64,000 nucleotides of DNA from NCBI GenBank assembly GCA_015680685.1, contig MNCI01000167.1, forward strand, positions 64,346-128,345. Direction: 5' to 3'. Shown here piece by piece: positions 28,528 through 61,381 of this stretch; within the stretch, counting starts at the first letter, position 1, and every line of letters starts with the position of its first letter. A model generated the notes under the pieces. That model was not told the DNA's origin, did not search any database, and saw only the letters and a program-made list of their open reading frames with translations. Both the position numbers and the translations under genes were made by a program. Origin of the DNA: Gnetum montanum. Its lineage: Eukaryota > Plantae > Gnetophyta.

Positions 28528-28622
28528 GTATCTTCTTAGCAAGCTAATAGATTGATTGCTATTATATATAACCTAATGATGTCCTTAAACTTAGCACTTC
28601 CATTCTTGAATTGTTTTTCCAG

Positions 28623-28841
28623 AAACTGGTTGTGATTTTTGTTACTGGAGATGAAGCAGACCCATCAAAAACAGCGATAAGGTCTAGTGCAGGTTCTATT
28701 TTGGCCAGGCTTCTTGTGCAAAACAGTAATTATTTTGCACATTTAATTGCGCAGCCAATATCTTTGACACAGCTTCAGCAAGCAAGCATTAGTCCTGATC
28801 AGAGGATTGTACTTTCTATGGTGGATTCCTGGCTTGATAAG
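28623..28841 (+). CDS. IPO11: Importin-11 exon: KLVVIFVTGDEADPSKTAI...DSWLDK
   Basis: AG/GT borders, 219 nt, DPSKTA..ILARLLV..WLDK motifs. Confidence 0.95.
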
Positions 28842-37132: not shown

Positions 37133-38198
37133 AGAGGGAGGGGTAAGGTGATCCAAGAAATTCTTCAAAGGATGGATATTCCAAACCTTTCAAGGATGAA
37201 AAGGGATCCATGGAAAAGAATGCCAAAGAAGATATCCAAGAAAAGCTAAAAGAGGGTTTCATCAAGTTTTCCAAGAAGGATTCCTTCAAGGGGAAAGGTG
37301 TTGGTAAGATCTAATGCTTCAATTATGGAGAAATGGACCATAAGTAATGGAAATGTAAGAAGCCAATAGCCTCTAAATAGAAGAAACTTTAAACCATAGA
37401 GAAGAACTCTTTAGCCTCTACAGCTAAGATAACCCTAATGAACCCATGATTGAAGATATCACTCAAGTTAATTCTTGGACTTTCATGGGAAATGTTAATA
37501 TAGAGGATTGTAATAGGAAAATCCATTTTAGAAATGGGGCTAGATGTTTGTCTAGTGGAGAATGGATTCATATTCTCATTGATGATGAAGCTCAAGAAAA
37601 CGTGATCTCTACTAAGATTGTTTAAAGACTAGTTTTGTTTAAATTTTCTCACCCAAAACCCTATATTTTTTTTTTGGCTTTTCAAAGATCATTACCAAGA
37701 AGTAAGAGAAACGCATTGTCTTTTAGGATTAGTTCTTATCGTGACAAGGTATCTTATGATATTCTTTTAATTGATTGTGCTGATCTAATTCTTGATAGAC
37801 CTTGGAACTTTGACAACGAGGCTACTTTTGATGAAGGCAAAATTTTTTTGTTTGTGCCTAGGGTAGATGATATTCACAAATTGATTCCCATGTATTTACA
37901 ATAGTTTAATAAAAATGTTTTTACCAATGCCTCTTTGATTTTGTTAAGTGAAAACAAGTATGTTTAAGCTCATATACAAGTTGGGCATGGTTTCATGATT
38001 GTGTTAGTAATTGCAACATGTGAAAAGGAACAAGCAAGTGAACTTATGGCATTAGGGAAATCCTTGTCATTAGAGTTTGCTAATATGTGCAAGGGTACAT
38101 TGGAAGGGATCCCTCTTATGAGGTTTATTCAACATCAAACTGACTTCATACTAGAGACAACTATACCAAATGAGAGAGCTTATCAAATGACTTCACAT

Positions 38199-40069
38199 TA
38201 AAATATCACCAATTTTGGGCTCTTGCAGTTCAATGGCAGATTTGTCGAAGTGTCCAAACTTGGGCAAAATTTTTCTTAGTGTCATGTTGGGAAGCGTAGA
38301 TAGCGTAGCACACTGGAGCTCTCGATTTTTGCAAAATTTTTCTAAGTTTGCCTGCTATGCTTCCAAACACAGCTAGTGTAGCACACACTTCCATGACTAG
38401 TCTACACAAATGTCAAGCCAGAAGTGATCAAGGGTTGGTTAGGATGGACCAAATAGTTTGACAAATTTTCTATCTCCTAGATTTTCAAGCTTGCTATGCT
38501 CTCTAGCTTGCCCAGCTTGACACATGTCCTGGTTGCTAGTTCACCTAAGGACCAGGCTAGAGTCTATCAAAAGTGCTTAGGATGGACAAAACAGTTTGGC
38601 AAATTTTCTATCTTTCAAGCTATCACGCTTTGCTATGCTACACAGCCTAGCTAGCTTAAAAAGTTTTAGGGCCAAATTTTGTCTAAGTGTTGAACAAGGA
38701 TTTGTCAAGCTATCTAGACATGGAAGATGCATTTGGCAATTTTTTGACTTCCAAGGCTGTTTGTCTTGCTACACCCTAGAGTGTGGTCAACATGCCATGA
38801 AGAAACATTGCAAATTTTTGGCAAAATTCATCAAAGTACTAGTGCTATGCTTTGCTACATTGCGCAACATAGATAGCATGACAGGCGTGGCAAGTCAAAA
38901 TCTATAAAAATTTTACTAAGTGCTCATGCTATGCTCTGTCATGTTGTGTAGCGTAGACAACATGACACATGGAAAATGCTTCTGAATGCCTCTAGAAGCT
39001 CCTAGAACTTGGCATCAACCTTCATTTAAGCTCCGATGTCCCTTTGGAAGCCAAGATTAGTAGTTTGCCTTGCTTTTGCACCCCCCATTAATTCCTAGAA
39101 TTGTCCCTATGCTTGACCCTACTTGGAGGAGGGGGAAGATGTAGTCTCAGAGTGTAGACTCCAAGTTACATTTATTTTGACATTGTTTGTAGGTACATGG
39201 TAGTCTCCCAGACTCTAGCACATGCATTTTGGGCGGTATGGTCACAGTTTGGTAGTTTTTGAGTTCCTGTTCTTGTCTTGCAGAGTGTAACACTTAGAGC
39301 TTGCCATTTTGAGCATAACATGTCAACATGACTCATCCATGCCCATGCTACGTGGGACCCAGGTCATGTGGCACCCAGTTTGCATCTCACATTAACCCTA
39401 GCCCTATAAATACCTTGATGATTAGCACTTTAGAGGTTGGAAAATCATTTTGAGCATTAAGCATTAGAGCAATTCTAGCATCTTCACTACTCCCGCATCT
39501 AAGAACCTGATCTTGACATCTTGGCAAGTACCGTGACATCGTCTCCCTTGCACTCGCACATCGTGATGACCACCAACCCAACAGGTTCAACCTCCTTTGC
39601 AGCTACTAGCACTGTGCTTGTGACATCCTAGAGATTATGATTGCATTGCTACGCTACTGCTGTAACTATCTGAATGCTGCGTACCAACTTCAAACATTAT
39701 TTAATCAAAAGTTGCGCTCGATCTTTGGGCAGTGCATTTCTCCACCTTCAAAATTTGGTTCTATATTCTCAACATTTGTTTCAAAATTTTTAGCATTACT
39801 CTTGCACTTTCTTCTACTATTGATACACATTTGCATATTCATGTTACGTTATGTTCTTGCTTGTTGTCCCGGCTCCCGAATGAAGCTCACTAAAAACTCT
39901 TTTTACAAACGGTTATTGTTACACCACATAAGTCCTTGTTTGATTGACCAGACTATTTAGGGCATCTCATTTCTATTTCCCCCAACATAGTCCTTGCATA
40001 GATTTTGGGTTAGGCTATATGCCTATGGATCTCTTGGTGTTCTAGCCATCGATGTTTTCGGATGTCACA
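38199..40069 (+). repeat. Ogre/Tat 5' LTR
   Basis: Colinear with 55453-57328; ends ggatgtcaca; TATA-like ctataaata at ~39404. Confidence 0.93.
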
Positions 40070-40074
40070 GTTTT

Positions 40075-40091
40075 TGGTGCTAGAAGGAGGG
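40075..40091 (+). promoter_or_regulatory. Primer binding site, probably tRNA-Asn
   Basis: tggtgctagaaggaggg just after the LTR end. Matches, with one C>T, the complement of the plant tRNA-Asn 3' end as recalled (..CCCUCCUUCUAGCGCCA). Confidence 0.75.
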
Positions 40092-40559
40092 CCTCCTATT
40101 CCTTCTAGGTGCAAAGGGTAGTCCCACATGCTTTCTACACCTCCGTCACTAGCAGCAAGCTAGCATAGATGTAACACCCTTGTTGACCTACCATGATAGT
40201 AGCTGGATCATAGGCTAGTGTAGGAGTTGTCTACATTCTAGTTGGTGCAAATTGGTCTTAGTTAACGGTTCCTCTAGAACCCCATAGGATGGAAATCCCA
40301 AATTGTGTTCATTGCATCAAGCTCTAAGTCTGCTATAGAGCATGATAACCCAATGAGCATAACAGTCCCTTAGAGCATGACAAGTGTAATAGTAGAGATA
40401 ATTATTTTTTTAGCATTTCCAGACTTAGCCATTTTTGGCCTATTTTCTTTACAGTATTCACACTTAACTATTTTATTTTAAAATTTTTTTACACTTTGGC
40501 TCACCCCATCCAATACATGGTAGACATCAAGCAACCACCTAGCCCAGTGTGACCACAAC

Positions 40560-43500
40560 AATAGTCTCTTAGACTATGACACCAATTGCTTGAATACATG
40601 ACACTTGATGATGGAAGGTATAACTTTTTATGCACAAAGATTCAAGTAGGCCTACCATTGGACCGCCAAGAAATGGAAGAAAAGTGTAGTTTCAAAATTA
40701 TCCATCGAAATGGAAGGGAGTTCCTTCCCACCCCTGGCATGGTTATATTATTCACTAAAGCTTTCAAATGGATTTTGGACCAACATGTTAGGATGAGTGG
40801 GCCAAAAGAGCAGGATTTGACATCCAACTATGATGAACCCCTACAAGATGGGCAAGAGGAGTTTGAATGCCATTTTGATGGTGGCGTCCCACTCTATGTC
40901 TTAGCCTCAAATTCTACCTCTATATTCCTACCACACCAGTCACAGTCTTTTACCTTCTTTGAGGCAACTGTGATGCTTTTGCAACCTAAAAAATATGCCG
41001 GTGGTAGCTAGCCACTAGGTCTTGTCTACGCAACAAAATGTAGGACCTTTTGTCCCTTTTCCCTTTTTCATTTCCTTGTAGTCTGTTCAGCATTCATAGC
41101 TAGTGTCTATGATGCCAACGCTACCCTATGTGCAAACCATGTTCATATCGCAGCCACACACAAGTCACATTTCCATCACTTTAGCCATATTAGTCCCACC
41201 ACCAACAATAGCTCCAACCTGAAATGCGTTGTGGGTAGCAACACCTTTACCCACTGTTCAATTGTCCCTTGTGCCATAGGAGATCCAATAGTCTACATAC
41301 CAAGTGTCACATGTGGTGGCACAACCCACTACAAGGTTGTGGACCACTTGGAAGACACCACCAACGACACAGCTGATGCAACCGTCTGCAACATCCCCAA
41401 GTTTGCTCCAAGAATTCTAACTTATCCAAACTCTCATAGAAGAGCTCAGGTGGCTTAGAGTAGCCAACTCAGAGATAGTCCATGTAATGGACTTCTATCA
41501 GGATGATCCCATTAGCCCTACAGTCCCTTCATTGACACTAACTCCTGGGGTCCAGCTTCCCTAGTTCATGAAATATAACGGTGAGGGTGACCCAAACACT
41601 CAGTTGGTCACTTTCTGTTGTGAGTGCTTACTATTGCAAGCATGGTCACACGTGATTATCTGTGTCTTTTCCATGTCTCTGACTGGCAAAGCTTTAGATT
41701 GGTATCACATGCTTCCTTGAGCATCCATTTCAACTTTGGAGGAGTTGTTGAGCCAATTCATAACCTGCTTCAAGTACAACTTGAAGTCAAAAGCCACGCT
41801 AGACCAACTCATGAACGTTAAACAAGGAGCATTGGAGCTAGTGCAAAAATTCACACAACATTGGAGCACCTCCCTAAACGAGATTCATGAGCCAATTACT
41901 AAAACCCACCTACTTGCCATTTTTAAGAGCGTAGTAAATGATTTCATTAAATTGAAGCTATACTATTTAGCCCTATGTTCCCTTAGCCAAGATTTTGCTT
42001 AAAAAAAGAGCATACAGGATGCGATGGAGGCCAGAAAGGACTCAGCTTACATAGCCTACAAGAATGTGCATGCAAAGAGAGACAAGGAAAAAGAGAAAGC
42101 CATGACAACCGCCGTGGTGGCTGTGGCTGATGAAGCTAAGTCCAACAACAATAAGTAAGCGGCTAAGGCACCTAAGGCCTTGGCCAACAACAACAAAACA
42201 TCAGGTTCTGGCAATGTAGGAACCAACTAACCTGCATGATCAGCGATTGTGGGGAAAGCTCCCCTAAGGCCAAACTTTGAGCACAAGGATCACTCAAAAT
42301 ACACCCCTTTGCTAATCAAGCCATCAAAGATTTTGGATCAATTGCTTAGTGCTTGGCGCATTTAGCACAAGCAAATGTCGGAGGATGCATGAAAGCATCA
42401 CAAGAGGTATTACAAGGTAGTTCGAAACCCTTCTGTGGCTATGCTTAATGAGCCTTTGGTACCCAAATATTCTAGACTGGACAGGTTCTACAACTATCAT
42501 TAGTTGCATGGCCATGACATAGATTATTGCCTAGTGTTGAAGGATGATATCCAATGCATTATCGATCAAGGCAACTTGGTCCTTGATGAAAGTAATTTTA
42601 TTTGGCCGAAGAACTAGTGCATGAAAGTCTATGAGGATAAAATGCTAGCGATGTAGGATATATCATTAATGCTATCAACATTGATAATGATGTAGAGCCA
42701 ACACATGAACCATTTGTGATCTGTGTGCCCTCCAGTGACATTGAGGCCTCAACGTCAACTAGGCCACAGGCCTGCTTCATCATCAAGGCACCACCATAGG
42801 AACCCATGACACCCTTTGTGGTTAGGTCCCTATAGCACATTATGGAAACAACAACCCAGAAACTTTTTGTCATAAGGATGCCAAAATGTGTGGATCCCCC
42901 ATCTACCTAGGTTCGATGGTGTGGACTGCATCGTGACCTGCTTACTTGAAGAGACGTGATGAGCATTTGGCTGACAAGATGGTTAGGGAATGCATAGAAC
43001 TAGGTCCTGCCAAACCTACCCCGTTGTCGACCATTCCCATGGCCTCATCATCTAAGGCCACCAACATAGACAAGCACACACAACAAGCAACCACTGCGGC
43101 TCAAAGGCTCATTGCCCAACCAAAAGTGAAGTCTTCTCCTCGAGAAATTTATCTCTTAGGGTGCATGGAAGAGATGAAAACCACCAAAAAAGTTGATGAT
43201 GGAAAATATTTTCTAGATGCACTCACATAGGTCAAACAGGCACTAAAATAGAAAAATATAACATTGAGCCTATATGACTTAATTATGATTTCTCCTACTC
43301 ACCGTGAAGCCTTAGTTTGCATGTTGGCATCCATTCCTATTAAGAAAGACAAGCTAGTAGAGGAAACGGCTATTCACGCTATAATGCTCCTGCCTGTAAC
43401 TGAGGAACCAAGGTCAACACTCTTAACCTTTCATGATGAAGCAATCAAAGCTAACCCTAAAAAGGATCAAGTAACCACTGCACCCATGTTTATAATGATT

Positions 43501-44131
43501 CATGTGGATCAGTACAAGATACGAAGAGTGCACATAGATGATGGGGCAACAAACAACATTATCTTATTTCTCATCATGGATAAGCTTGACCTAGTGGATC
43601 AAATTAGGCCAACAAAAATGACCTGTTTAAAATCCTTCAACAGAGCATGCATGGTTTTCAAGGGGATAGTGATAATTGATTTTGTGGTAGGGAAGAAATT
43701 TCCCACTAACACAAAATTTATAGTGGTTGAAGAGATGCCTAGATTCAACCTGATTTTAGGGAGATCCTGGTTAGTCCAACTAAGGGATATTTCTTCACCA
43801 ATCCACCAAGAGATCCACTTACCTTATGAGGGTGGGGAAATGGTGATCTTCAATGACAACATAGCCCCTCAGACCATCAACAATGTGGACACTGAGCAAG
43901 GGTTGGAGGTAGAAATCTCCAAAGACACACCACCTGTTTACAACGAAAGTTGCTATTGTTTAGCCAATGAAAAGCAACCAAACAAGACAAATGAACTCCA
44001 TAAGGAAGCTCTATGAGCAGAATTGACCTTTTCTATGGCAGATGATAGCCTAGGGGAGTATCGTTTAGTGCCCTCCAGGCCTTATGCACTGCCTAACCCA
44101 CATTCAGTTAGGAAACATCTACACGATTAGG
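40560..44131 (+). pseudogene. Ogre/Tat gag-protease
   Basis: Gag KYNGEGDP..ALDWY..L..QF...F; Ogre-type knuckle YH..HGHDIDYC.VLKDDIQ.IIDQG (~42490-42570); protease ORF 43264-44016 RRVHIDDGATNNII..FNLILGRSWL. Confidence 0.88.
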
Positions 44132-44597
44132 GCATGTCACTAACTTGCTTGCCTGCCTAACTTTTCTCTAGCCCCTTTTGCCTATATAGTTTCAGTTTGC
44201 ATTATGTTTGCTTCTTGCATCTAGTTATGATTTCATTTAGCTTTCTGCTTAAAAAAATGTGATCTAAAATGACCTTAAACTATTACACAGTCTGAGTGGC
44301 CCGAAATAACCTTAAACTAGTCTATGGCCCAAAATGGCCTTAAACTAGCATGGGGCCCCAAATGGCTTTAAACTAGCATGGGGCCCATAAGGGACCTAAT
44401 TATATCAACAAAAATCTAAGTGAGATCAATTGAACTACAAGTTAAAATGATAGCACTAAAGATAAATAAATATCATACTTTTCATGAAATCATAAACAAA
44501 ATACATAGTCTAGGATTACATCCACATCAAAATATACAAAACTACCCAATAATGGAGTTACATCTTAAACAGTTTCATTTGTATTAATGATAGGAAG

Positions 44598-47500
44598 CTA
44601 AGGATCTTCCCATCCATCTTTATTTGTTGCTCTACTGGGTCCTACACCTTCACCTGGAGCTTACGCAAAATAAAAAAATGAAATAATAAACTATTTAATA
44701 AATGGGATAACATGCAAAATCATATAGATAACAATAAGGTAAGTTAAACTAACCTGAGATGGGCTCACGTCCATATCTGGGGGCATCTTGTTGAGGCCAG
44801 ACTCTAGGCGTTAGAGGATCTCCTCCTCTGACATGTGTGTCCAATCCTCCTCTCCCAAATCAATGCTTGTGAGGGTCTACCCTTTCTCCATGGTTGTTCA
44901 TTTTGGCGACCCTATAGAAAATGAGGTAGATGTGACCTCTCTAGAAGGAATAGCGATCTCCCTCTCTGGGAACTCACTAACCACTAGATGATTTGTGAAC
45001 ATTTTGTAAGCTTGCATCACACCAATGACATCAAGGAATATGTTGTGACATTGGCACTCCATAGACTCATCCCTATATTTCTTACAATAGGCTACACATT
45101 CCATCTTGTAATGATACTTGTGGTTTTTATGAGTATGTTCCCATTCATATACTTTAGCACTGTAGTCCTTCCCATCTTGGTTCTTCTGAGCCAAGAGGTC
45201 CATCTGCAAGTGCTATTTAATGACCTTATGAGTAGCCTCATTCTTGCCCAGATGGTTGACCAGTACCTAGTGTAGTCAATTTTGGCCATATGCCAGTTGC
45301 CATTTGATTTGTCGCGGGTCACCAAGAAGTTGTATCACGATTGCAAATCTTCTAGTTGGATTGCCTGGTTTGCCTTCTATTTCCAGAGCTCTTGCACTTT
45401 TTCTAGAGCTCCTCGCTCATGTGCCTACACTCCCACAATGATCATGCAGAGTGTAGTGTGCATTTGCTTGCCTCGTCATATATATGATGAGGCACCTGCT
45501 CCACCTCAAGAGGAAACTCAAGTATAGCATTAACCTAGACCGCTCTTCTCAAGTCCCACTTGAGTCATGAGCTTGTTATCCCAAGTAGTGAAACATTAAT
45601 CAAAACAAAAAAAAAAAAAGAAAGAGGAAAAAGGAGGTAGTGATAGTAAGATAAACATACCTATCTTAGGATCTATCTATTTAAGGTAATCGATCATGTC
45701 ATCCACTACACCTTGCATGAAGGCAAATTTGTCTAGAGTTTCCACCCACGATCGTGAGCGGAAAGTGGATGTAGATTCAAGACTCTTAGTAGAAGCATCA
45801 CCCAATATAATATAAGGCATTTCATGGCCATAAAAAAAACACAAAAATATAAAAATGATAAAAAAGAAGAGAGAGAAGAGGGAGAGGAAGAGCATAATGA
45901 AGATGGCGGTGCAAAGCTCTTACCCAGCAAACCCTTAGGGGTGAGATTAGGGGGATTGCCCATTTACATGCCTTCAAACAAGTGATCAAACTCATTATCC
46001 TCTAATTGAAACCCCTCTTCTTTGAGTTGCCTCAAAACTTTAGCAGCATCCTCATCTGTCATGTGTCCCTTAGGTTGAGAAACATCCTCTTCTAAAGGCT
46101 CCTCCTCTGTAGTAGGGGCCCTCTTACCTATGTTGCAAAAATCTAAGTTAGAACATTTAATAAAAGAAAAAAAATGTAATAATAATTATATATAAAAATG
46201 AAATACACTAAATAATGTATACTTGTTGGCTAACTCTAATCGTGCATTGTGAAGTCTGAAGTGCAGCTTCTTTCCTCTTTAACTTCGCGTGCGAGCTCCT
46301 CTATAGGACGGGGCATCTTGATTTACATTATTGGCTTCACCATCTCAATGATGAGTCATCCCTCCTTTGCAACGTTACCTGTGTTAGTGGGTGGAGCCTC
46401 TCCAACACTATCACACACACGGTAGGATGGCCCCGTGTGGCCCTTGGTGGTCACTGACAATGACTCATCAATAGCCTCTATGGGGTCCAGTGATCATGTA
46501 ATATGGAACAAATGGCAGATTCATGGATTGGATATCTAGGTGCGATCTTGCACCATCCATAGCCCATTCTCATGGACCACCAAGAATTCCACAAATCTTC
46601 ATAGGCATGCTATGAAGAATACAAAATGCACATGGGATCATGCCTCAAGGTTGTCGCAAAGTTTGACAATTTCAGCTTGTAGGCCATCGACAACATATTT
46701 GGCCTAGTTATATTGTGTCCCTTTCTTTATCACATCCCTCATAACCCAAGAATGCTCCACCCTAAGGACCTTTCCTTAAGAAAGTAGCTTAGGAAATGCA
46801 CAAGCTTGGAAGATAGGATAGAGGTCTTGGGCTACCAACAATTTCACTTGCTTCATGGGTATACCATTGCAGCCTTTCTCAGTACCCAACCACTCTTCAA
46901 TGTTCCCTTTGTGATTTAGCTCCTTCTTGGTTTTCTCACCTATTGGCATACCTTTAGAGGGGATGCCAAAAAGATAAAAAAAGTTCATTCGTGATCTCAA
47001 AGGCCATCTGCATGTTGTGAACTGGTGTGTGGAAATGGTCAGCCCTCTCAAAGGAAGAGTTGACTAGGGCAGTCATCTCCATTATCAAGATTTTTGGGTT
47101 CACAGCCAAGAAAAGGTCCATGAGCCTAGCTCGCTGAAGATTTTGGATTACTCTTACTAGGGCCTTGTTGCAAAACTAGTGCTACAAGCTATCAACTTCA
47201 CCATATTTGAAAAGAAGATTGGCCTTAGTGCATCTTGAGACAACCACTATGACCTTCCTAGAATTAGCTATGATTGCAATAAACAAAAGTAGAATTAGTG
47301 ACATGATGGAAATATAAAATTAAAAGTGCATGAAAGCAAATGGGTGATAAAACTTACATGGCTCAAACAATGTGTGGAACAATGGTAGTTGGACCAAAAC
47401 CTTTTCTACACTTGGTATCTAGGATGCCCACTCAATGTTCAACTAGCTGAGATCCCAACACTTCACATAGGATTTGGAGTACCTACTAGGATAATTCGTC

Positions 47501-48300
47501 ATATTCACCCCAATTTGCCCTATAACACTAGCACACATTTTATCAATGGATGAGAACTCTTATAGGGCTATTTGGACTAGGGCTAATATCCCCTCTCCAT
47601 TGTGGAGGCTGTTTGCATCAAAAAAATATTTGGTAATAGGCAAAAAAGGTAGTAAGCATTCTAAGTCATGAGACAATAGGTAGTGTAAAAAAAATCACAA
47701 TAGGGCTCACCATCTAGCAAAATAAACCATCCCAAGTGGATTTTGGAAGGTCCTGTGCACATGATGGGCAAGGAATACAATGTTGTATTTATGGTAGCAT
47801 TGGAACTTGGGCATCTCCTAGATCCAAGACAAGAGCTTAAGGCCTTTTGGGCACTGGGTCAAGCTCCTTGCCCTTTCACCTTTAGAAGATTCATCTAACA
47901 TGAATTTCAAGATGCCTTGGTTTGCCCCAGGCAACAATGTCTTGACTATGATGCCTGCTGCTTTAGTTGACAAGTGTGATTATATGATCACATTGAAGTG
48001 GCAAAGTAGGAATTCTAAGAATTCTTGTGCACCCTCTCAAAACTAGACCACCTGGTGTCCTATGTGGGCATGTGGTGTGGAAACATTTGACATGGGATCA
48101 TTCATACAACATAGGATCCCCACCAATTCGACCACGATGAGAGTAGGTTTCAGCAAGATCCTACAATGCCACAGTAATGAAAGCATTAGTATTGGAAAAA
48201 GGTAATAAAAACAATAAAAAGTAGCAAACAAAAAATGCATAAAATAAGATAAAAGGAAAACATAATTTATTACATGTAACATGCTTTTCTACAAGCCCCA
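44598..48300 (-). pseudogene. Antisense multi-intron accessory gene inside the PR-RT spacer (PMD/Transposase_32-like part plus helical/coiled region)
   Basis: Minus-strand GT-AG, T-rich ~90-100 nt introns at 47710-47609, 47357-~47268, 46222-46128, 45660-45572 and 44753-44660. Exon peptides include FEITNELF..FGIPSKG..I and KGTQYN*AKYVVDGL. Confidence 0.65.
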
Positions 48301-48759
48301 TAGGGAAGGGATGTTGGCATGAGCATCTAACATGCCTGGTTCCAAATGGGGCACAACACTAACACTTACATTATTTTTCCAAATGTTAGAATATTAGAGA
48401 AAATATTAAAAAATTTTCTAACTGTTGTTCATGCTTCCTGTAGAGCAAGACACTTTTCAACTAGAATTTTTTCTAAGTGTTTGTCACAGTCCTATTGTGG
48501 AACAATTGGCAAAAAATTTAAATTTTTTTTTAAGTGTTGGCCATGCTGCCAAGGAGTGTGACAACTGTAGAGTTACTAGCAAAAAGTTGCAAAAATTTTT
48601 CAAGTGTTGGTCATGCTCCTAGGGAGTGTGCAAATTACAGAAGATGTAAAATTTTCTAAGTGATGAACATGGTAGTGCCAATATTTTAGTTCTTATCACT
48701 CTCTTAGGGATGCCTAGAGCTTGATGGACATGATCCTTGATTAGCTTGGCTGAGTCTTG

Positions 48760-49050
48760 TCCCATGATGCAGGACACCAAAAATCCTTGTCTTGTGCCAT
48801 GGTGTGGGATGCTTGTGAAACCCCTATCCTATCTTGTGGTGTGGGACATCGTAGAAAACCTTGTCCCGTCCTATGACGCAGGACATGTAGAAAATCCTTA
48901 TTCCACAGCATGGAATGCAGAGTGCCCAAACCCTCAGAACATGCTACACTCGTGATACATGTAAAACCCCTATTCCATCCCATGGCGTGGGATGCTACAG
49001 AAAACCTCATTCCATCCCATGGCGCTGGACACGTAGAAAACCTTGTTGAA
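48760..49050. repeat. Degenerate ~37-bp tandem array (aaaaccYYRtYccRtcccatggYgtgggaY..gtag)
   Basis: About 7 units visible, e.g. aaaacccctattccatcccatggcgtgggatgctacag and aaaacctcattccatcccatggcgctggacacgtag. Confidence 0.8.
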
Positions 49051-50029
49051 ACCCTTACCTAGTGTTGTGGCATAGGATGCCTACAAACCCTCAACGCCAA
49101 AATAAAAAATGGGGCGAAAGAAAGAGAAAATGTGCATTACACGCACTTCCTCCCTAGCAGCAGCATAGTGGCCACGATGGCAGTAGTGGTAGTGGTCCTT
49201 GCCCATGGCAGGCCGCCTTCCAAACATCCAAAAGCCAAAAGGCCCAAAAATAGGTAGGAAGTAGGAAGAAACAAAAATCATGAGTGGAGCATGACAACCT
49301 ACTTGGTAGATGACATCTCTTGGTATTCCTCAATGCATGCCCTGGGAAGACATCACAAGGTGTGCTCGCCTTCATCAATGTTGGTAAGGCTAGGGTATCT
49401 ATGTTCACTTTTACATGCCATCTTTAGTTGCTATGCTCTAGCTTTCCTATTTTCATGAGCTAACTTCCCTTTGTGGCTGCTACACTTTGCCTTGGTTGTG
49501 CTATGCTCGAATGATTGTTGGCTCTAATGGTGAAAATGATAGGTTTACCATGGGTGAAGCCTTTATTTATACCCTTCAGGATCAAATGACACGTCATCCT
49601 TCCAGGACATCCCATGTCTTGCATGTAATGTGGGATGCTCCATATCCCACATGTAATGTGGAACGTCCCATATCCTGTGTAGCATAACACTCAGAGTTAG
49701 AAAAATTTTCTAACTTTTTTAGCTTCCTACACTTAGAAATTTTTTTACATTTTTTTTGCTTACTCAATAAACGTTCAGTTTGGTCCCACGTTTTAAACCT
49801 TTCGAGCTTTGCTTAGACTTACATCCCACGCATAGTCTATGGACTGCTATGACCTTAAACTAGTAATTTTATGGCCAATCGAAGCTATAGAAAAGAAAAA
49901 AATATATATAGACAAATCATCTTACATACTGCATAGTTAATCAAGTTTTTATATCATTACCCTCCTTATTCTATGCATTTTTCTTTATTAAAATAGGTGT
50001 TGCTTGACATTTTTTTGGTTATTTTGCAG

Positions 50030-53000
50030 GATCTATTGAAAAATAAATGCATACGAGAGTCTTCATTTGCCCTTAGTCTTGAATGGAACTGATGGCAAAC
50101 TCATGAGACGTATAAACACAAAAATTTTGGACTTTGAACCGCATACCTATGAGACCAACATAGCATCCCTAGAGACATTGCTAGATTGGTTGGGACATCT
50201 AGTTAGAGCTCTAGACTTAGAAGCAGGTGACATGACCAAGGATCCCCTCATAGAAGTCCTAGTAACAACATGCAAAGGTGAGGTGAAGACATTGAAACTT
50301 AGTTCCTTGTTAGAGCCTCAAATCCAACAAAGCATCTGTAAATTCCTTAGTGACAATGTTAAGGCATTTGCATGGTCCTACAAGGACATGTTGGGCTTAG
50401 ACCCATGTATAATATAGCATAACATTATCCTAAATTCATGCATGAAACTAGTTAAACAAAAGGCTTGTAAAGTTAAGCTTGAGGTCATGTTGGTCATCCA
50501 TGATGATATCACTAAGCTTTACAAAGTTGGTTTCATCTAGGTAGTTGACTATGTTGACTGGGTTTCAAACATCATAGTTTTCCCAAGAAAAATAAAAGTA
50601 TATGCATTTGCATAGACTTTTGAGACCTAAACAAGGTAACCATTAAAGATGATTTCCCATTGCCTAGTATTGGCCAACTCATCAATACTATAGCTGCACA
50701 TGCCTTATTGTCATTCATGGACAGGTTCTCGGGGTACAACCAAACTCGCGTCAACCCAGAGCACCTACTTAGCACTACTTTCATGGCCTCATAGGGTACA
50801 TTTTGTTATACAGTGATGCCCTTTGGACTAAAGAATGCATGAGCAACACATCAATGTGCAATGACATACATGTTTAGTGACTATTTATTAGACTTGCTCA
50901 ATGACTACATTGATGACATAGCAATCAAGTCCAAAGTGGCTCATGACCACATAGATGACTTGGACAATGTCCTCAAACATTGCCTTAGACATGACCTTAG
51001 GAGTAATCCCAAAAAGTATGTCTATGGCATAAAAACTAGTCACATGTTAGGCTTTGTGGTATTAGAAGTAGGAATACATGTGGACCCCAACAAGGTTAAG
51101 GCTATCACCAACTTGGCACCACTAACAAACCTTAAGGAGTTACACAAGTTACAAGGTAGGTTGCAATTCATATGTAGGTTTATTGAAAGGTTGATTGATA
51201 AGTTGCAGCCAATGCAACATTTGCTCCAAAAGGGGATCAGCTTTGAGTGGACAGATCAATGCCAAGAGGCATTTGACAACCTAGAAAAGGAGTTGGCTCA
51301 ACTTCTAACAGTTTACCCTCCAAAAGGAGATAAACCTTTCTACATTTACCTTGCAACCTCAGACATGTCCATTGCTTTCCTACTTTGCCAAAAGTGAGAC
51401 GATGGCTTTGAGGTCCCTATTTACTACTTAAGCCATGCACTAGTAGCACACGAGGCAAAATATAATGATGTGGAGAAGAACTGTCTCACCTTAGTCTTTG
51501 CACTTAAAAAGTGGAGACACTACCTTTTCCACAGCCAAGTCAATGTCATCTGCAAGAGCAACGTACTTAGGGCTATTACAACAAACATATATGATAGTAG
51601 TAGAATAGCAAGGTGGAAGGCAATAACCATAGAGTTGGACCTGCACTATGTAGTGTAGGAATCTACAAAAGGTCAAGCAATAGCCACACAACTCACGACT
51701 TCACCCATAGACGATCAAGCAACAATATATCTAGAATTTCTAGATGAGCATGTCAATAGTATAAGCTAGGTACCTACAAATTTTGAGGCTATTTTAGACT
51801 TTGATGATGCTTTGACCACACAAGGTGGTAGTGACACTACTGTTATCACATTCTCCTCTAGGAAGATCTGACCCTTCACATACCACTTTGCATTTTCTTG
51901 TACAAACAACGTGGTGGAGTATGAAGGTCTCCTTAGAGGCATGTTAGAAGCTCAAGAGTTAGGAATTCAAAACATAGTAGTTCGAGGTGATTCACAGCTA
52001 TTTATTAACCAAGTCACAGAGGTTTATGCTTGTAAGGCACAACATCTACAACCTTACTATGATTTGGCAAAGCACTTGCTTAAACAAGTTGCAACTATAT
52101 ATGTCCAACATATACCCCGCAATGAAAATGCCATAGCTGATGCACTAGCTACTTTAGCCTTAAGCATAGCGACAAATATTTTTTCTACTTTTCCCACTTC
52201 AATAGTGGATTGCATTGAACCTATAACTCACACAAAAAGCATCACATCCATAAGTACGACTCATTCCCAAGAGTGGTATGATGATAATAAGTCATACCTC
52301 CAATAGGGAGAGCCTCCACAGAATCTAACATCTACCCAAAAGGACAAAATACAAAAATAATCATGGCAATATGTCCTTTTAGGTGATAATACCTTATGTC
52401 AAAGATCCTATGATGGAATATTGTTAACTTGCGTTAGTGGTAGTGAAGTGCAAAAGATCATTGACCAAGTCCATGAAGGACTATGTGGGGGTCATATAGC
52501 TCATAGGGTAATGACGGAAAAATCAGATGTTTAGGCTATTATAGGCCTTACATGGAGCATGATTGCATCTCTAAGGTTAGGACTTGTAATGTGTGTTAGT
52601 GGCATGGGAACATAATGCATGTGCCACCCACTAAACTGCACACCACATAGACCATGTGGCCATTCCAACATTGGGGGTTGGACATCATAGGACCTATAAT
52701 GCCTAAATCTTCCGTGGGATACAACTTCATCATTACTGCAACTGAGTATTTCACAAAGTGGGTTGAAACCATTCCCCTTAGGAAGACAACATTGCAGCAA
52801 GTTTACAAATTCATTCTTGACAACATAGTAACTCGGTTTAGTCTCCCCATGACTATAGTCATAGACAATGGGCCACAATTTAGCAGTGCAAAAACCAAAG
52901 CCTTCTGTGAAAACCTTGGCATCAAACACTCTTTCTCATCACCATACTAATCATAGGTGAATAGTCAAGTGGAGGCTACAAACAATGTCATCGTCAACCT

Positions 53001-53512
53001 TTTGAAGAGGATGCTTAACAATAGCAAGCGACAATGGCATGAACAACTATTCTACGTACTATGGGCCTATCGCACAACATGCAGAATTGCGACAAGTAAA
53101 ACAACATATAGTCTTGTGTATGGATTTGAAGCAATGTTGCCTCTTGAATTGTAGGTCCCATCACTCCACATGATCCTTTTGAGCTTCATTGATGAGGTTC
53201 AGAATAGTGGGTTGAGAACCATCGACCTTGACTCTATAGAGGAGGAGCATATGCAAACACTTGAATACATCAAGTGGTACCAAGAGAAGAAATGACAAGC
53301 ACCATCAAAATTAGCATCAATGCCCAACCAAGAAAGGGGACTTGGTCCTCAAGGTCATCCGCAAGCTTGCGGACAAATTCTCAGCGAACTAGGAAGGGCA
53401 TTTCTTGGTCACTAAGGTGTACGACAATAGAGCCTTCAAGCTCACTGATCTAGATGGTAATGAATTTGCCAATCCTATTAACCACTTGTATATGAAGCCA
53501 TACTATACATGA
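50030..53512 (+). pseudogene. Ogre/Tat pol: RT - RNase H - additional (archaeal-type) RNase H - integrase
   Basis: RT FAWSYKDM.GLDP, MPFGLKNA, YIDD; RH EKNCL.LVFALKKWRHY; aRH EYEGLL.G...GDSQL..NQV..HIPRNEN..ADALA (51911-52306); INT WPFQHWGLDIIGP..EYFTKWVE..DNGPQF; stop at 53510-53512. Confidence 0.95.
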
Positions 53513-53554
53513 TATGTAGTATCACACCAATGATAGGAGCAAGGTAGGCAGACA

Positions 53555-53860
53555 TCCGCTATGATGTTAAGCTATTATAGACGTTTGCTACGATGTTAAA
53601 CTAGCACAGATGTCTACTACAATGTTAAACTAGCATAGAACATCCTTGGGCTATGACATTAAATTGGCACCCACAGCATGATCCACTATGACCTTAAATT
53701 GGCCATCCACCATCTACTACCACGTTAAACTAGCACAGTGGTTTGCTAGAACCTTAAACTAGCACATCATGGTCCTTTTAGACCTTAAACTAGGATCATA
53801 GTTTGCTAGGACCTTAAACTAGCACAACAAGCAGTCTACCAAGACCTAAAACTGGGTTTG
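53555..53860 (+). repeat. Array of CTAYGAYSTTAAACTAGCAC-like units in the Ogre/Tat 3' UTR
   Basis: About 10 copies of a ~30-bp unit, e.g. ctacgatgttaaactagcac and ctaggaccttaaactagcac. Confidence 0.85.
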
Positions 53861-55439
53861 CAATTCAACATGTATAGTTCAACACACATAGTTTTACGGA
53901 CAAGCAAGCCAGAATACTTCCAATATTTTGTCACTTGCCCACACCTCTTAGGCAGGATTGGGTGGGGCATTGCAATTCTAGAATGAAGTTCACATCATCA
54001 AGGAAAAACCCTCAAGGACATTTACAACATTAGCATCCTCAGCATTTTTTTGATCTTCTAGAGATGTTGTTTGGCATCTTGTTGACCTTCTAGAGCTACC
54101 ATCACCACTGCCAATCATTCTGGTCATAGCTCTTGCTATCAGTAGCACTCACTAGAGTCCCAATAGTACTATGGCCCAGGCACAACACTACCATCCTCTG
54201 GCCCTCACCATCGCTTGAGCCTAGAAGAACGTCCAACAATGTAATTCTCTACCATGTTGTTGGGTTTCTTGGCTCTTTCCTTTGGTGAGAACTTCTAAGC
54301 ACTTGCATCACCATCACCTCTAGCCACTTGGTTGCTCACTTTTGGTATGGCTATTGGAGTTTTCCAGCCTGCCACCATCAACGCCTGCACTAGCCTTCTT
54401 GTTTTGGACATCGCACACAATTGACGTAGCACTTGCAGCCCTTGCAATGCCCTTGGTAGACAAGACTTTGGCCTCATCTCATGTGGTGGTTGTTTTTCTT
54501 GTTTTCTCTATGTTGCATTTGCAGGATGAAGCCTGGGCGACATCATTCAAGGATGCATTTCATCATGATGGCAAGGCATTGCATTGTTCCAATGTGTTTA
54601 CTTTGGCTCACCTAGCTACTTAAGAGTGCACATCCCTACTATCTCCTCAGCTAAACTAACCTTTACCTCTTGATCTTGCAATCTCTCACATCCCTTGCAA
54701 GCTTCCCTAGTGCACATGAAACCTTTCTTGCAGTTAGCTGCTGAATCCATGAAAGATGTAATGCAAGTCATCCCATGTGGAGCCTTTGTGGGCTGGTCAA
54801 ATCCCCAAATAGATGTAACATAACTCATCCTAGGGAGGAAACACCTATCCTACAAATGCCACGTAGTTGCCTCTAAGCAAATGTTGGTGTACAGTTCGCC
54901 CAACAACACAAAAGGAAGCAAAAAAAAAAAAAAAGAAAAAAGAAAAAAGAAAAGAAAAGAAAAGAAAAGAAAATAGAAGAAAAAATAATATATAGATAAA
55001 GAATAAAAAAATAAAAAAGAGAAGAAGATAAAAGAAGAAAAGAAAATGGGACAAGCCAAGTGACCAAGTCAAATGGCATAGTTGTCATCTCTCAACCAAT
55101 TCGGCCCTAGATTGATTGTCTCACAAGCACTCTGATGAGATGTTGAAATCCAAAGGGTAGGCCACCTTCACATGTTAACTCCCTCACAAGCACTTTGATG
55201 AGGGATCATGCTATGGCGACAAGCCATCATGACATTGGACCCTATAGTTATCCTCTCCATCCATTGTCCCTTGATCCATCTCCCTAAACTATTCTATATC
55301 ACAACTCATTTCCTTAGCACTCTGAAGCATAGTGAAGCATTGTACAAGTGGACGCTAATGGATGGTGTTGGTGTCATGTTCATCATGGTGTTTTGTATTC
55401 TTTGTTGATGTCTCTCGGGTTAATCCTCTAGACGTCAAC

Positions 55440-55450
55440 AGAGAGGGGCC
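55440..55450 (+). promoter_or_regulatory. Polypurine tract
   Basis: agagaggggcc immediately before the TG that starts the 3' LTR at 55453. Confidence 0.8.
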
Positions 55451-55452
55451 AA

Positions 55453-57328
55453 TGAAACACCACCAATTTTGGGCTCATGCAGTTCAATGCAGATTTGTCT
55501 AAGAATCAAAACTTGGGTAAAATTTTTTTAAGTTTGGTGTCATGCTAGGCAATGTAGACAACATAGCATACTAGAGGTCCTGATTTTTGCAAAATTTTCC
55601 TAAGTTTGCCTACTACGCTCCATAGCATAGCTAGCATAGCACACACTTCCATGGCTAGTCTACACAAATGTCAAGCCATAAGTGATCAAGGGTTGCTTAG
55701 GATGGACCAAATAGTTTGGAAAATTTTCTATCGCCCAAACTATCAAGCTTGCTACGCTCTCCAGCTTGCCCAGCTTGACACATGTCTCAGTTGCCAGTTC
55801 ACCCAAGTACTAGGCTAGAGTCTATCAAAAGTGCTCATGATGGATGAAATAGTTTGGCAAATTTTCTATCTTTTGGGTTGTCATGCTCTACTACGCTACA
55901 CAACATAGCCAGCTTGATAGGTTTTAGGGTCAGATTTTGTCTAAGTGTTGAACAAGGATCTGTCAAGCTATCTAGACATGGGAGATGCATTTGGCAATTT
56001 TCTAACTTCCAAGGCTATCTATGCTGCTACAACCTAGAGTGTGGTCAGCGTGCCATGAATAAACATTGCAAAATTTATCAAATTCATCAAAGTACTAGTG
56101 CTATGCTCTACTATGCTACGCAATGTAGACAACATGACTGGCATAGTAGGTCAAAATCTACAAAAATTTTAATAAGTGTTCATGCTATGCTCTATCATGT
56201 TGTGCAGCGTAGACAACATGACACATGGAAAATGCCTCCAAATGCCTCTAGAAGCTCCTCAAACTTGGCATCAACCTTTATTTTAGCTCTGACATCCCTC
56301 CAATAGATAAGACTAGTATTTTGCCTTGCTTTTGCATCCCCCATTGATCCCAAAAATTATCCTTATGCTTGACCCTACTTGAAAGAGGGGGAAGACATAG
56401 TCCCTAAGTGTAGATTCCAAGTTGCATTTGTTTTGACACTGTTTGTAGGTACATGGTGGTCTCCTAGAGTCTAGCACATGAAATCTATGTGGTGTGGTTA
56501 CAGTTTGGTAGTTTTTGAGTTTCCATTTTTGTCTTGCAAAGCATAACACTTTGAGCTTCACATTTTGAGCATAACATGTCAGTGTGACTCGACAATGCCC
56601 ATGCTACGTGGAACCTAGGCCACGTGGCACCTAGTCCGCATCTCACATCAACCCTAGCCCTATAAATACCATGATGATCGACATTTTAGAGGTCGGCAAA
56701 TCATTTTGAGCATTAAGCATTAGAGAACTCCTAGAATCTTCACTACTCCTGCATCTGAGCACCTGAGCTTGACATATTTGCAAGTACTATGAGATTGTCT
56801 CCATTGCACCCACATAGCATGACAACCACTAACCCAGCAAGTTCAACCTCCTTTGTAGCTGCCAACATTGCATCCATGATGTCTTAGAGACTATGATCAC
56901 ACTACTACGCTATTGCTATGCCTGTTTGAACATCGTGTACTAGCTTCAAACATTATTCAATCAAAAGTTGTGCTCCCTAATCTTTGGGTAGTGCATTTCT
57001 CCACCTTTGTACATTGGTTCGATATTCTTAGCATTTGTTTCAAATTTTTTAGCATTACTCTTGCACTTTCTTCTACTGTCGATACACATTTGCATTTTCA
57101 CGTTATGTTACATTCTTGCTTGTTGTCCCAGCTCCCCCATGAAGCTCACTAAAAAGTCTTTTTACAAATGGTTATTGTTACACTACATAAGTCCCTGTTT
57201 GACCAACCAGACCGTTCAAGGCATCTTGTTTTCTTTTCCCCTAGCATGACCCTCACACAGATTTGGGGTTAGGCTGTACGCTAGCAGAGCTCTTGGTGTT
57301 TTAGCCATTGACATTTTTGGATGTCATA
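55453..57328 (+). repeat. Ogre/Tat 3' LTR
   Basis: Starts tgaaacaccacc, ends ggatgtcata, followed by TSD cacat. Differs from the 5' LTR mostly by transitions. Confidence 0.93.
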
Positions 57329-57517
57329 CACATCAGAGGGAGAAGCATGAAAGACATACTAGTGAATTTCCCTCAAATGGCTTCAATAGAAGTTAATATC
57401 TTCATGTGTAGTGTTAGCAATTATAGTCCCTAATAAAGACACTGATGAGATGAAGATGTGCATTGATTCTATGGTTGTTGATAGGATAACTAGCAAGTAT
57501 TATTTTTCTATTTCTAG

Positions 57518-58385: not shown

Positions 58386-58619
58386 TACCCCTATGATTGA
58401 TTGAAAACTTGTTCTCAAGTTAAAACAAAAGAAGGATAGAGTTTCTTACAAAATTTAAGGGGTTATATACAAACTATGATACCATGACTTATACACATGA
58501 CTGACTCTATTATGAATGTTGCATTGTGGTTTGAGTGGTGTTTAGAAAATTATGAGGTAGTGCATGATTGACACATATGATAAAACAAAATTAAAAAAAA
58601 TAAAATAAAGCTTGATGTA

Positions 58620-61381
58620 GCCCTTATGTTCCAGGTCGTGGTGGCTCCTCCATCAACTTCTTCCCTTTGCTATCAGGTTTTTGAAATTGGTATTTGTTAA
58701 GGAGTGCTTGAAGCATCTCTTCTTCTAATCTTGGCTCATGTAATGTCCAAGAAATTCTACAATGTTTGCTAGAGTCAATACTTCCCATAGACATGGCAAT
58801 TGTGGGAACATCTTATTGGCTTTCACATATCATGTCAAAAATTGCCTTCTTTCATCTTCGAAAGATCTAGCTATTTTTTTTAACTCTTGGTAATTGGTCA
58901 TCATCCTAGCAAATTTTGCTACAATATCATTTTGGTCCTAGTAGTTGGCTTTGAACACATGTAGTTTAGAATTTGTAGGATGAAGCTTTTGTTATGCATC
59001 CTTTCTATTTGCAAAATTCTTCTCGTAAAATGCATACACTAAAGCCACCTACTGCTCTAGTTCTATTTTGGGTTTGCTTGTTATCAGCATGGCTAGATTA
59101 GCATATCAAAGATTTGCTAATGCCATGTACTTTGTCAAATCCTCTATCTCTAGGTCTTGGTTTTTAACTTTGGCTTGGTGCACCAGGGCAAGACTATCCA
59201 AGATTGGCTACTAATAAGGTTTTTGCATTGTGATGGAATTAATCTTAGATTTAGCCATTTGGATTGTCTTCTGATTCATTTTCATGTACATGCCCACCTA
59301 ATATTTGAAGTGCTTCTTTAGCCATTCATACTTCTTAGTCTCATTTTGCTATGTGTTGATTTTAATGAATAACGTTTGGCATATAATGCTAACTTCTTCC
59401 ATGGCTAGGATTCTATTTTCTTTGGTGAATTTTTTGATGTTGACTTTTCCCCAAGTAAATTTCTCCCTCAGCTAATGAATTCTTTCTTCCAACACATTTT
59501 TCTACTTCTTAATATTTGTCAACCTCATATTTTTAGTAGCAATTTTCTTATTTTCCTCTTCTAATGTAATTAGGGCTTTAACATAAGCATAGGCTTGAGC
59601 ATCTACCATTGAGGAATTTCACACTACCTTCTCTTTTTCCATCTCCAATTGGGCATATCTAACCGTCTATTGGTCCATTTTTTTAGTTTTGAATTACTTG
59701 ATCTAGTCAAATGTGATGTACTATTTATGGTCTTGCCTTTCTATTCTTAGCATGATCAATTCCTCTTGTAGCTACTGCACTTCATTTTTAGAATGTTCTA
59801 CTCTAGTTTTAGCTATTATCAACTTGCCCTTAGCTAAAATTAACTTCAAATGCACCATAGTAATATCACTTGGGATATCAAAGAGATTTTGCATTATACT
59901 TGTCTAGTCTATAGCAGTCGGTCTAATATGTCTTATGGCTCTTCTAGAGCCCTAGTTTCTACATCCTTTTTTCTAGTGATATTAGTTGGTGGCACAATGG
60001 AAATATTGAAAGATTCCTTGAGATAGTCAGTGATAACTTTAGTTGCTCCTATTGCATCATGGTGTTGCATGACTACTACTATGGCTCCTTCTCTTATTTC
60101 TAACATTATCTAAAAGGATGTAGTATTCCTAGATATTTTTTGTGTCTAGTATTTATTCTCTCTTACTTGCAATAATATTTGACCACTTGAAAATCCTTTT
60201 GATAATACAAGCTTGCTTATATTGTCTCTTATTCTATACATACTAGAGACCTCTCTACTTCCCTAGTTTATGGTTTTAACAATCTTTTGTAGATGGATTA
60301 TTGAGGGTTTGTAATCTTGTTGTGCCTAAGGAGCACTTGGCCCTGGTCTATCAATAGCTAGTATTGACCCACTAGATCCTACTTGCTCTGTTCCTATAGC
60401 CAGAATGTTTCTTACTAATGTAGATCTAGTTGCTCCTTCACTACCTACTGGATTTTCCACTTGATTCTTCTTCGATGATACTATTTTTAAAATTTTAGCA
60501 TATGAAGCATTCTTGGCCTTTTGAAGAACATCATTGGTGTAACCAAGAATTCTTACTTGTCGACATAATTTTCTAATAAGGCAAGGAAATGGTAGAATGA
60601 GCTTCCTTGGATTCTTTACCTCAAATCTTCTTTGAATTTTCAAAAATAATAGATGAGCCATGTTAGCCTAGAATTTCCTCATAAAAATGTTGATTCTTCT
60701 AGTGGTGTCAGTAAAAATTCTATTTAATATTTTTGTGGGGAAGATATGGTTAGTCCCAATATTAAAGTAGATGTTTTTGGTTATGGACAATCCACTATAT
60801 TTCTATTAACTAGTCTCATAGATCCTTTGTAGCCATAGCTTCCTTAACTCTATATCAAACCTTGTAGACATTTGGATGATGTTGGCTTTGATGTTTGGAA
60901 TGTTGGGTGCCTTGGATATCATCTCAACTGAATAGGGCACTCTAATTCCTTCTATCTTTGCTGTAGCATCATCTTGCTTATTCATCCAAAACTAGTACAC
61001 TTCTCCTAGGTACAATTCACCATTACATGAGATTGTAGATCATAGAGAAGAGGCTTGGAGTTGTTCTCAAACTTATGTAGGAGCAAACTTCAAGAATGGT
61101 CCAAAGTTCAGTTCCACTATGATAGTGGACATGATAGAATTTTCTTGGATTACTGGAAGACATTCATCTGATAGTGTGAGGTGCTATCCTTGCTCTTGAG
61201 TACGTGGTGCTTTAGCTTTAGCTTATGTAGATTATCCTATAGCAGGCATTGATTGTTGGATAATATAGAATTAAGCATCTTGCTCTTTAGGTGGGGTATG
61301 TTCTCTAGCTTGTCCTCTTCCTCTAGGTCTCTTTCTCCTTTGTTGTGACAATCCTTCTACTGTGGATCTTTGAGGAGGCAT
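58620..61381 (-). pseudogene. Gypsy extra ORF: Transposase_32 (PF20167)-like domain plus long coiled coil
   Basis: tgtag|ATG MPPQRS...; GELYLGEVY*FWMN..ATAKIEGIRVPYSVEMISK; ANMAHLLFLKI..LPFPCLIRKLCRQV (ORF 60326-60661); E/K/L-rich helical region ~59850-59000. Confidence 0.7.

Follow-up and report, generated by a model that had tools for sequence, protein, structure and literature searches.

A Tat-clade retrotransposon of Gnetum montanum with a probably integral, intron-rich antisense gene between protease and reverse transcriptase

Introns are described as generally absent from plant LTR retrotransposons, with Ogre and EVADE as the exceptions (PMC12786077). In Ogre, gag-protease is separated from the reverse transcriptase (RT) by a spacer of 274 nt on average, which is a partly spliced intron (PMC6317226). 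In Tat lineages III and V, antisense open reading frames (ORFs) for a PMD and a coiled coil occupy the 3′ end (PMC4408406), and in deltaretroviruses HBZ of HTLV-1 has been named as an antisense gene (PMC11963269). Furthermore, a ‘retroviral’ order of RNase H (RH) and additional RNase H (aRH) is known in Ginkgo, yews, cypresses and gnetophytes (PMC13468544, PMC10508981). Extra antisense ORFs are known, as is the short intron of Ogre; an intron-bearing antisense gene nested in a protease-RT intron was not found in the literature searched.

Here we analyse a 64,000-nucleotide window from the gnetophyte Gnetum montanum (contig MNCI01000167.1), to which all positions refer. Like Ogre (Tat lineage IV), its element has a non-coding region, with ends resembling splice sites, between gag-protease and RT-RH-aRH-integrase (INT), and displays large LTRs, tandem arrays and a 5-bp target-site duplication (TSD) (PMC6317226, PMC4408406). 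Its spacer is 5.9 kb long, where that of Ogre averages 274 bp (PMC6317226), and has a gene inside; the PMD-bearing extra ORF of Ogre is in sense orientation upstream of gag, whereas here it is antisense and within the spacer (PMC4408406).

A close parallel to this gene is the antisense accessory gene present in most copies of Tat III/V and of Retand, Grande and RIRE2 (TRP28), with which the locus also has in common neighbouring tandem arrays and a helical C-terminus (PMC4408406, PMC7264820, PMC11963269). Grande gene23 has its own promoter, and here an antisense promoter is presumed from a candidate TATA-like box. However, the antisense ORFs of Tat III/V and Retand occupy the stretch from pol to the 3′ LTR, and Tat antisense ORFs are described as plain ORFs (‘intron’ does not occur in the excerpt of PMC11963269), whereas the main gene here lies between protease and RT and would contain about ten introns. 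Gymnosperm Tat J/K elements likewise carry the aRH between RH and INT; the likeness is one of domain order, the sole subject of the excerpts, in which ‘intron’ and ‘antisense’ are absent (PMC13468544, PMC10508981). The gene described here also differs from the Tat antisense ORFs in giving no PMD or TRP28 match, which has to be set against its decay and frameshift. Finally, HBZ is itself spliced, and the present gene would resemble it as a spliced antisense gene maintained in a genome passing through RNA; HBZ, however, is driven from the 3′ LTR, has one or two introns, is not located within a gag-pol intron and encodes an unrelated protein.

The host element and its spacer

The window contains a complete but dead Ty3 element of the Tat clade (38199-57328, 19.1 kb; table 1), with an LTR pair flanked by a TSD, the order gag-PR-RT-RH-INT, a protease lying with gag and away from RT, and an additional, archaeal-type RNase H between RH and INT (PF13456, E 1e-16). 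The Ogre/Tat label proposed in a first-pass annotation holds for the Tat clade, with Ogre a candidate at most: at 5,898 bp, the spacer departs from the short one typical of Ogre. The gymnosperm host and the primer site, which we take to resemble that of tRNA-Asn, also set the element apart from Ogre. Neither the protease frame nor a plus-strand frame of 293 codons farther upstream (40580-41458) matched Pfam. In the 3′ region, a short remnant at 54600-54900 represents a second antisense coding-like stretch, and no homology was found between the antisense regions of the spacer and of the 3′ part.

Frame positions and Pfam pol domains bear out the claimed protease-RT distance of about 5.9 kb (protease frame at 43252-44016, pol frame from 50040). 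The candidate donor and strong acceptor that had been pointed out are both present as sites: the acceptor at 50029 ranks second among the 1243 plus-strand AGs of the element (ad hoc score), and, by context, the GC donor (44132) scores 3.75, against −0.57 for the best GT site within 43950-44300. Moreover, the T-rich pieces outside the antisense cassette sum to 297 nt, near the 274-nt mean Ogre spacer, which makes it plausible that the whole spacer is one enlarged Ogre-type intron spliced out for the gag-pol mRNA.

Table 1. Features of the element and of the antisense gene in its spacer (window positions).
Feature	Position	Strand	Basis or remark
Left TSD, 5 bp	38194-38198	.	repeated at 57329-57333
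5′ LTR, 1.87 kb	38199-40069	+	83% alike to 3′ LTR, K2P 0.18
Primer-binding-site-like tract	40075-40091	+	sequence
gag capsid domain, decayed	41664-41924	+	PF03732, E 3e-5
Protease-containing frame, 254 codons	43252-44016	+	aspartic-protease motifs by eye
Candidate GC donor (44132) and T-rich 5′ piece of presumed outer intron	44132-44263	+	
28-bp tandem array, core common with 3′ arrays	44297-44387	+	extended or of varying length in sister copies; loose ends at 44375 in 83 and 82 contigs
T-rich presumed 3′ UTR of antisense gene	44401-44597	-	inferred
Last coding-like antisense exon	44598-44641	-	one X16 contig links it to 44754
Antisense intron, 112 nt, GT-AG	44642-44753	-	missing at exactly these ends from one X16 contig
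Antisense exon with a helical, coiled-coil-like part and a tail of low complexity	44754-45572	-	frameshifted here
Antisense intron, 88 nt	45573-45660	-	acceptor not AG in this copy; skipped in one X16 contig
Antisense exon	45661-45804	-	third codon positions account for 7 of the 8 differences listed against sister copies
Antisense intron, about 119 nt	45805-45923	-	donor exact, acceptor not AG here; joint in one X16 contig
Antisense exon, acidic linker	45924-46127	-	29% D+E
Predicted antisense intron, 95 nt	46128-46222	-	sequence only
Largest antisense exon	46223-47257	-	contains motifs cited in the first-pass annotation; frameshift near 46980
Predicted antisense intron, 100 nt	47258-47357	-	
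Antisense exon	47358-47608	-	
Predicted antisense intron, 102 nt	47609-47710	-	
Antisense exon	47711-48160	-	
Predicted antisense intron, 113 nt	48161-48273	-	
Upstream antisense region, coding or leader	48274-49302	-	predicted introns 49058-48365, 49146-49081, 49302-49217
TATA-like box of presumed antisense promoter	49564-49571	-	sequence; candidate
Single copy of repeat core, far end of cassette	49855-49863	+	sequence
T-rich 3′ piece and strong acceptor (50029) of presumed outer intron	49864-50029	+	
pol: RT, RH, aRH, INT; stops and frameshifts	50040-53510	+	PF00078, PF17917/PF17919, PF13456, PF00665
Two 29-bp tandem arrays 3′ of integrase, core common with spacer array	53559-53826	+	
3′ LTR	55453-57328	+	polypurine tract directly before, 55440-55448

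Structure and splicing of the antisense gene

On the minus strand of 44600-49400, we counted nine T-rich islands, against none on the plus strand and a mean of 0.64 (maximum 4) in 300 shuffles. Every island begins at a GT donor (mean score 2.86 versus −0.56, p = 1e-4), and these island and donor statistics rule out a chance origin of the introns. The islands separate about 980 coding-like codons and, where at least five short T-rich GT-AG introns had been claimed, the predicted total now comes to about ten. With one frame per segment, 20 stops occur in 861 codons versus 32 in shuffles (p = 0.001), the segments having been picked with prior knowledge of the frames; the corresponding figures are 27 for the plus strand and 15 in 1043 codons for pol. 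Differences to sister copies fall at third codon positions in 18 of 33 cases, versus 11 expected.

Three predicted introns are skipped, at the predicted donors 45923, 45660 and 44753, in contigs of run X16, which is guessed to be RNA, each junction being represented by one or two contigs at a depth of about 3. The former two donors are used in joints, and at the last a loose end reads exactly across 44753-44642. The 88-nt skip preserves the reading frame, and a DNA contig spanning 45424-45748 retains this intron. Two of the four joints listed (44798-45689 and 46975-47045) correspond to no predicted intron, and no joint was found in the raw RNA reads of four runs. In run X10, strand bias places two spacer bins on the pol strand and one on the opposite strand. 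Peaks of RNA depth at 45830-45869 (X10 and X11) were poly-A artefacts and were dropped. Taken with the sequence statistics, the intron-less contigs from related copies support the proposal of a nested, spliced antisense transcription unit, three introns of which are absent from transcript-like contigs.

By contrast, no search supports the PMD/Transposase_32-like identity initially suggested for the product: Pfam is blank on the exons, though it does detect Transposase_32 in a neighbouring element. Profiles PF10536, PF20167 and PF04195 gave no match (exon frames at E up to 10, whole frames up to 0.1), with a sensitivity lowered by decay and frameshift. A 200-residue exon stretch had no phmmer match among 1.84 billion representatives. 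Word-index searches were equally blank for two antisense stretches and for the RT (E 1e-30, longer proteins); since the protein library seems poor in such elements, these blanks say little. There was no usable Atlas match for one 104-residue frame, no PDB structure match for a single-sequence fold (pLDDT 46), no PDB sequence match, and no six-frame tblastn match between an antisense exon and the neighbouring Transposase_32-like ORF. A metagenome scan returned no protease and four RT loci, three of them at 32% identity, none of which resembles the spacer.

Alternative readings of the spacer

On balance, we lean slightly towards reading the locus as a dead member of an abundant Tat-clade Ty3 family, with a multi-exon and likely accessory antisense gene in a spacer that is likely an enlarged Ogre-type intron. 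The gene could be integral and the spacer not one intron if a divergent promoter at ~49.6-49.9 kb served pol, whose transcript would carry a short leader intron up to the acceptor at 50029; the element would then have three transcription units. We regard this arrangement as unlikely, given that a donor-like site and a T-rich tract directly follow the protease frame, as in Ogre, that the outer pieces match a normal Ogre intron in length, and that Pol normally reaches the particles fused to Gag. It would nevertheless accommodate several observations: no 44132-to-50029 joint appeared among the matches listed for reads and contigs of eight runs (the RNA or probable-RNA runs examined numbering six, at a depth of about 0-5); the donor is GC and the outer splice is out of frame in this copy (donor phase 1, pol requiring phase 2); plus-strand donors (49384, 49863), T-rich islands (49695-49776) and in-frame ATGs (50103, 50232) precede the RT; and an X16 contig begins matching at 50039, with 86 further upstream letters unmatched.

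Multi-exon genes are typical of DNA transposons, and the cassette might also be an independent intron-bearing transposon (MULE, CACTA or Helitron type) or a captured host gene, inserted in this or few copies. All 12 spacer bins are covered in DNA of two organisms at depths of 340-5600, which a separate repeat family could explain; the median is one third of the gag-protease depth (3500-8800), and no contig bridges either spacer end among 16 listed of about 223,000 pieces. We consider such an insertion improbable, however. As had been claimed, the spacer has no LTR pair, which rules out a nested LTR element, and no TIR pair at its ends; Pfam finds no transposase or helicase in it; the 12 DNA rows listed show no pile-up of loose ends at either 44132 or 50029, and no protease-to-RT joint without the spacer occurs among 15 of 1557 listed. 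Furthermore, the 9-mer repeat core occurs four times in the spacer, at both cassette ends, and six in the 3′ region, and is absent from the rest of the 64 kb (0.92 expected); motifs had also been said to recur in the LTR, where the likeness is weak (best pairwise E 0.009, AT-rich). Because the spacer is multi-copy in the DNA of two organisms, lacks TIRs and transposase and has the 3′ repeat of the element at both ends, the cassette is probably integral, a built-in accessory gene; the earlier impression to that effect is indirectly supported on these counts, but not by a junction-bridging contig. Still less probable is a recombinant in which a non-autonomous LTR-gag-protease-antisense-gene element was joined with pol and the 3′ end of a related element, so that a deletion within a tandem pair would incidentally account for the gene position. 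Repeat arrays after both protease and integrase, the antisense stretch at 54600-54900 and a pol and 3′ depth 3-4 times that of gag-protease agree with it, although conservation predicts a higher pol depth. The two antisense regions lack homology, however, the acceptor ahead of pol looks intact, and the single LTR pair with matching TSD indicates that the layout transposed as a unit.

A possible cycle and its implications

If the spacer is an enlarged Ogre-type intron, full-length unspliced sense RNA would be packaged and copied, so that outer intron and cargo would both be inherited. The cargo introns, being in the opposite orientation, would be invisible to the spliceosome on the genomic RNA and thereby survive every cycle. 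A promoter near 49570 would drive an antisense mRNA for a protein of roughly 1,000 residues, with a folded N-terminal part, an acidic linker and a helical C-terminus, which probably serves the element in the nucleus, by analogy with proposals for Tat antisense ORFs. Its origin may lie in a 3′-type antisense cassette moved into an Ogre-like intron of roughly 0.3 kb by template switching at the common tandem repeat. More tentatively, and with slightly less than even confidence, we suggest that in a gymnosperm Tat lineage the Ogre gag-pol intron became a 6 kb cargo bay for an antisense gene that is rich in introns and has its own transcription. The ratio of Gag to Pol would then be set by partial splicing over a long range, and the protein encoded by the cargo would work on behalf of the element.

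The need to look for antisense and spliced transcripts has been raised in a review of extra ORFs in antisense orientation (PMC7264820). The present family, with a ten-intron antisense gene at a position not surveyed so far, would allow long-range partial splicing to be tested in a genome of 19 kb. It also carries a warning, as cassettes of this kind will be mistaken for host genes during annotation or will disrupt the annotation of elements in giant genomes. Above all, it would show a way for an RNA-replicated element to retain an intron-rich gene.

The spacer as a probable part of the element

Two 1.87 kb LTRs, 83% alike, delimit the Tat-clade Ty3 retrotransposon, which is flanked on both outer sides by an identical 5 bp; a stretch resembling a primer-binding site and a polypurine tract are also present. 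The LTR–LTR K2P distance is 0.18 (225 transitions and 65 transversions over 1861 sites). CpG and CHG depletion is similar across spacer, gag, pol and LTRs. The copy is dead. Pfam searches of 18 frames, with stops read as X, yield in this order gag, RT, two successive RNase H domains and integrase. The element thereby resembles Ogre and Retand, which are defined by an extra RNase H placed after the first one and before integrase (excerpts of PMC6317226), and the Tat J/K elements described from Ginkgo, yews, cypresses and gnetophytes, for which it is likewise reported (excerpts of PMC13468544 and PMC10508981).

The 5.9 kb spacer between protease and RT could be integral to the element or an independent sequence nested in it. 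In DNA contigs of two organisms (runs X1 and X7), all spacer bins are covered (medians 1669 and 1863, range 342–5611, up to 3400–4200 in exon-rich bins), compared with depths of 5192 and 6027 for gag-protease and more than 20,000 for pol. The spacer is therefore a high-copy sequence common to both organisms. No protease-to-RT joint figures among the 15 of 1557 DNA-contig joints listed, no pile-up of loose ends (contig parts beyond their match) at either spacer end among the 12 DNA rows listed, and no contig bridging the spacer ends among the 16 pieces listed. The insert was described in the first-pass annotation as free of terminal inverted repeats, and indeed none of the 25 longest of 112 inverted pairs links its two ends; nor did any of the 18 frames give a Pfam transposase match. 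Motifs said to be shared with the element were recovered in its 3′ region, as a 9-mer repeat core; spacer similarity to the LTR is weak. This core, set within 28–29 bp arrays, occurs in the spacer at 44312, 44340, 44368 and 49855, six more times after integrase and nowhere else in the window (0.92 occurrences expected). We consider it likely that the cassette, i.e. the repeat-bounded inner spacer holding the antisense gene, is integral to the element.

The antisense gene

The spacer with its antisense gene is a real feature. Between 44600 and 49400, nine T-rich islands lie on the minus strand and none on the plus strand (mean 0.64, maximum 4 in 300 base shuffles), and the best GT donors near island starts score 2.86 on average versus −0.56 in random windows (p = 1e-4), using a matrix built on plant frequencies. 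Ten antisense introns can be drawn, including one longer candidate, which exceeds the at least five short T-rich introns first proposed; 9/10 measure 66–122 nt and 9/10 end in AG, their ends having initially been placed by eye. The seven introns of the coding-like part are 66–84% AT versus 53–59% for exons, which sum to 2,938 nt (approx. 980 codons). In their best frame, the ten antisense segments hold 20 stops in 861 codons (shuffles: 32; plus strand: 27; pol, for comparison: 15 in 1043), with a p-value of 0.001 that is optimistic because segments were picked with frames already known.

Related copies were searched for splicing in run X16, a contig run whose RNA nature is guessed and whose evidence consists of single contigs at a depth of approximately 3; 28 records matched the window, with four joints (stretches of reference skipped). 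One leaves out a stretch of 119 nt whose end coincides with donor 45923, and another skips 88 nt, a frame-preserving length, at donor 45660, this intron being retained in an X1 DNA contig covering 45424–45748. The joints 44798–45689 and 46975–47045 correspond to no predicted intron. A loose end at 44770 stays in register through 44754, then matches 44628–44641 (2/14 mismatches; two further matches of this motif within the window), fitting the predicted intron 44642–44753 to the base. At 45672, the loose end of two contigs matches 45553–45565 after 14 letters versus approximately 105 expected. The splicing is antisense, because intron ends read CT..AC on the plus strand. Third codon positions hold 18/33 exon differences (7/8, 6/16 and 5/9), counted among 40 of 229 rows listed after dropping six in an A-rich tract and one in pol. 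Raw RNA runs X10, X11, X13 and X14 gave no joint in the spacer, at a coverage of about 0–3 reads, and run X19 no record matching the window.

The presumed outer intron

Plus-strand T-rich tracts lie immediately inside both spacer ends, and the spacer pieces outside the cassette total 297 nt, close to the 274 bp mean of the partly spliced Ogre spacer (excerpts of PMC6317226). Together, these sequence features suggest that the spacer is an ordinary Ogre-type intron into which a 5.6 kb cassette was inserted. Splicing from the candidate donor at 44132 to the candidate acceptor at 50029 would leave pol one base out of frame with protease in this copy, and no joined read across the two sites was seen. 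Given an integral cassette, we regard long-range splicing of the outer intron as fairly likely, and a separate pol transcript in its place keeps some probability.

Features of the element and of the surrounding window
Feature	Position	Strand	Remarks
LTR retrotransposon	38199–57328	plus	
Frame upstream of gag capsid domain	40580–41458	plus	293 codons, one stop; gag N-terminus or Ogre-like first ORF
Protease frame	43252–44016	plus	Identified by eye from motifs; no Pfam match
Candidate outer donor	44132		GC; context beats every nearby GT
Branch-point-like heptamer, pyrimidine tract ending in AG	44138–44171	plus	Only 40 nt past candidate donor; possible alternative acceptor
PMD-type motifs	47100–46700	minus	Presumed, recognisable by eye
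Candidate outer acceptor	50029		Rank 2 of 1243 by ad hoc score
Element's top-scoring plus-strand acceptor	54524	plus	In 3′ region; may be a chance occurrence or the acceptor of a subgenomic sense RNA
Second antisense coding-like stretch	54600–54900	minus	In 3′ region, below long T-rich tract 55084–54872; 2 stops vs 8 and 10; depth approx. 15,000 in DNA contigs; no Pfam match or homology to spacer antisense gene
Decayed mobile-element gene	58500–61500	minus	Transposase_32 (E 8e-8) at approx. 60550–61000, then long coiled-coil-like region
Host exon, importin-11-like gene	28572–28910	plus	PF25758, E 1e-5; long introns of this gene may contain the repeats around it
RT-connection and RNase H fragment	518–1102	minus	Resembles an endogenous caulimovirid by eye
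Three decayed LINE-like copies	3000–20500	minus	Richer in GC, with shared repeats at 5911, 13585, 18471

The predicted antisense protein

In the full-text literature searched, which included PMC6317226, PMC4408406, PMC7264820, PMC11963269, PMC13468544, PMC10508981, PMC12786077, PMC6431247 and PMC12477816, no gene that is antisense or contains introns was found described between protease and RT. The predicted protein, initially likened to PMD/Transposase_32, had no match in Pfam, among 1.84 billion representatives, in word-index protein searches, or in Atlas or PDB. It shows an acidic linker (29% D+E) as well as a C-terminal part that is helical, the same outline as in the antisense ORFs of Tat lineage V (PMD plus coiled-coil; excerpts of PMC4408406). 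A nuclear role serving the element may be borrowed for it, by analogy with gene23 of Grande (excerpts of PMC7264820).
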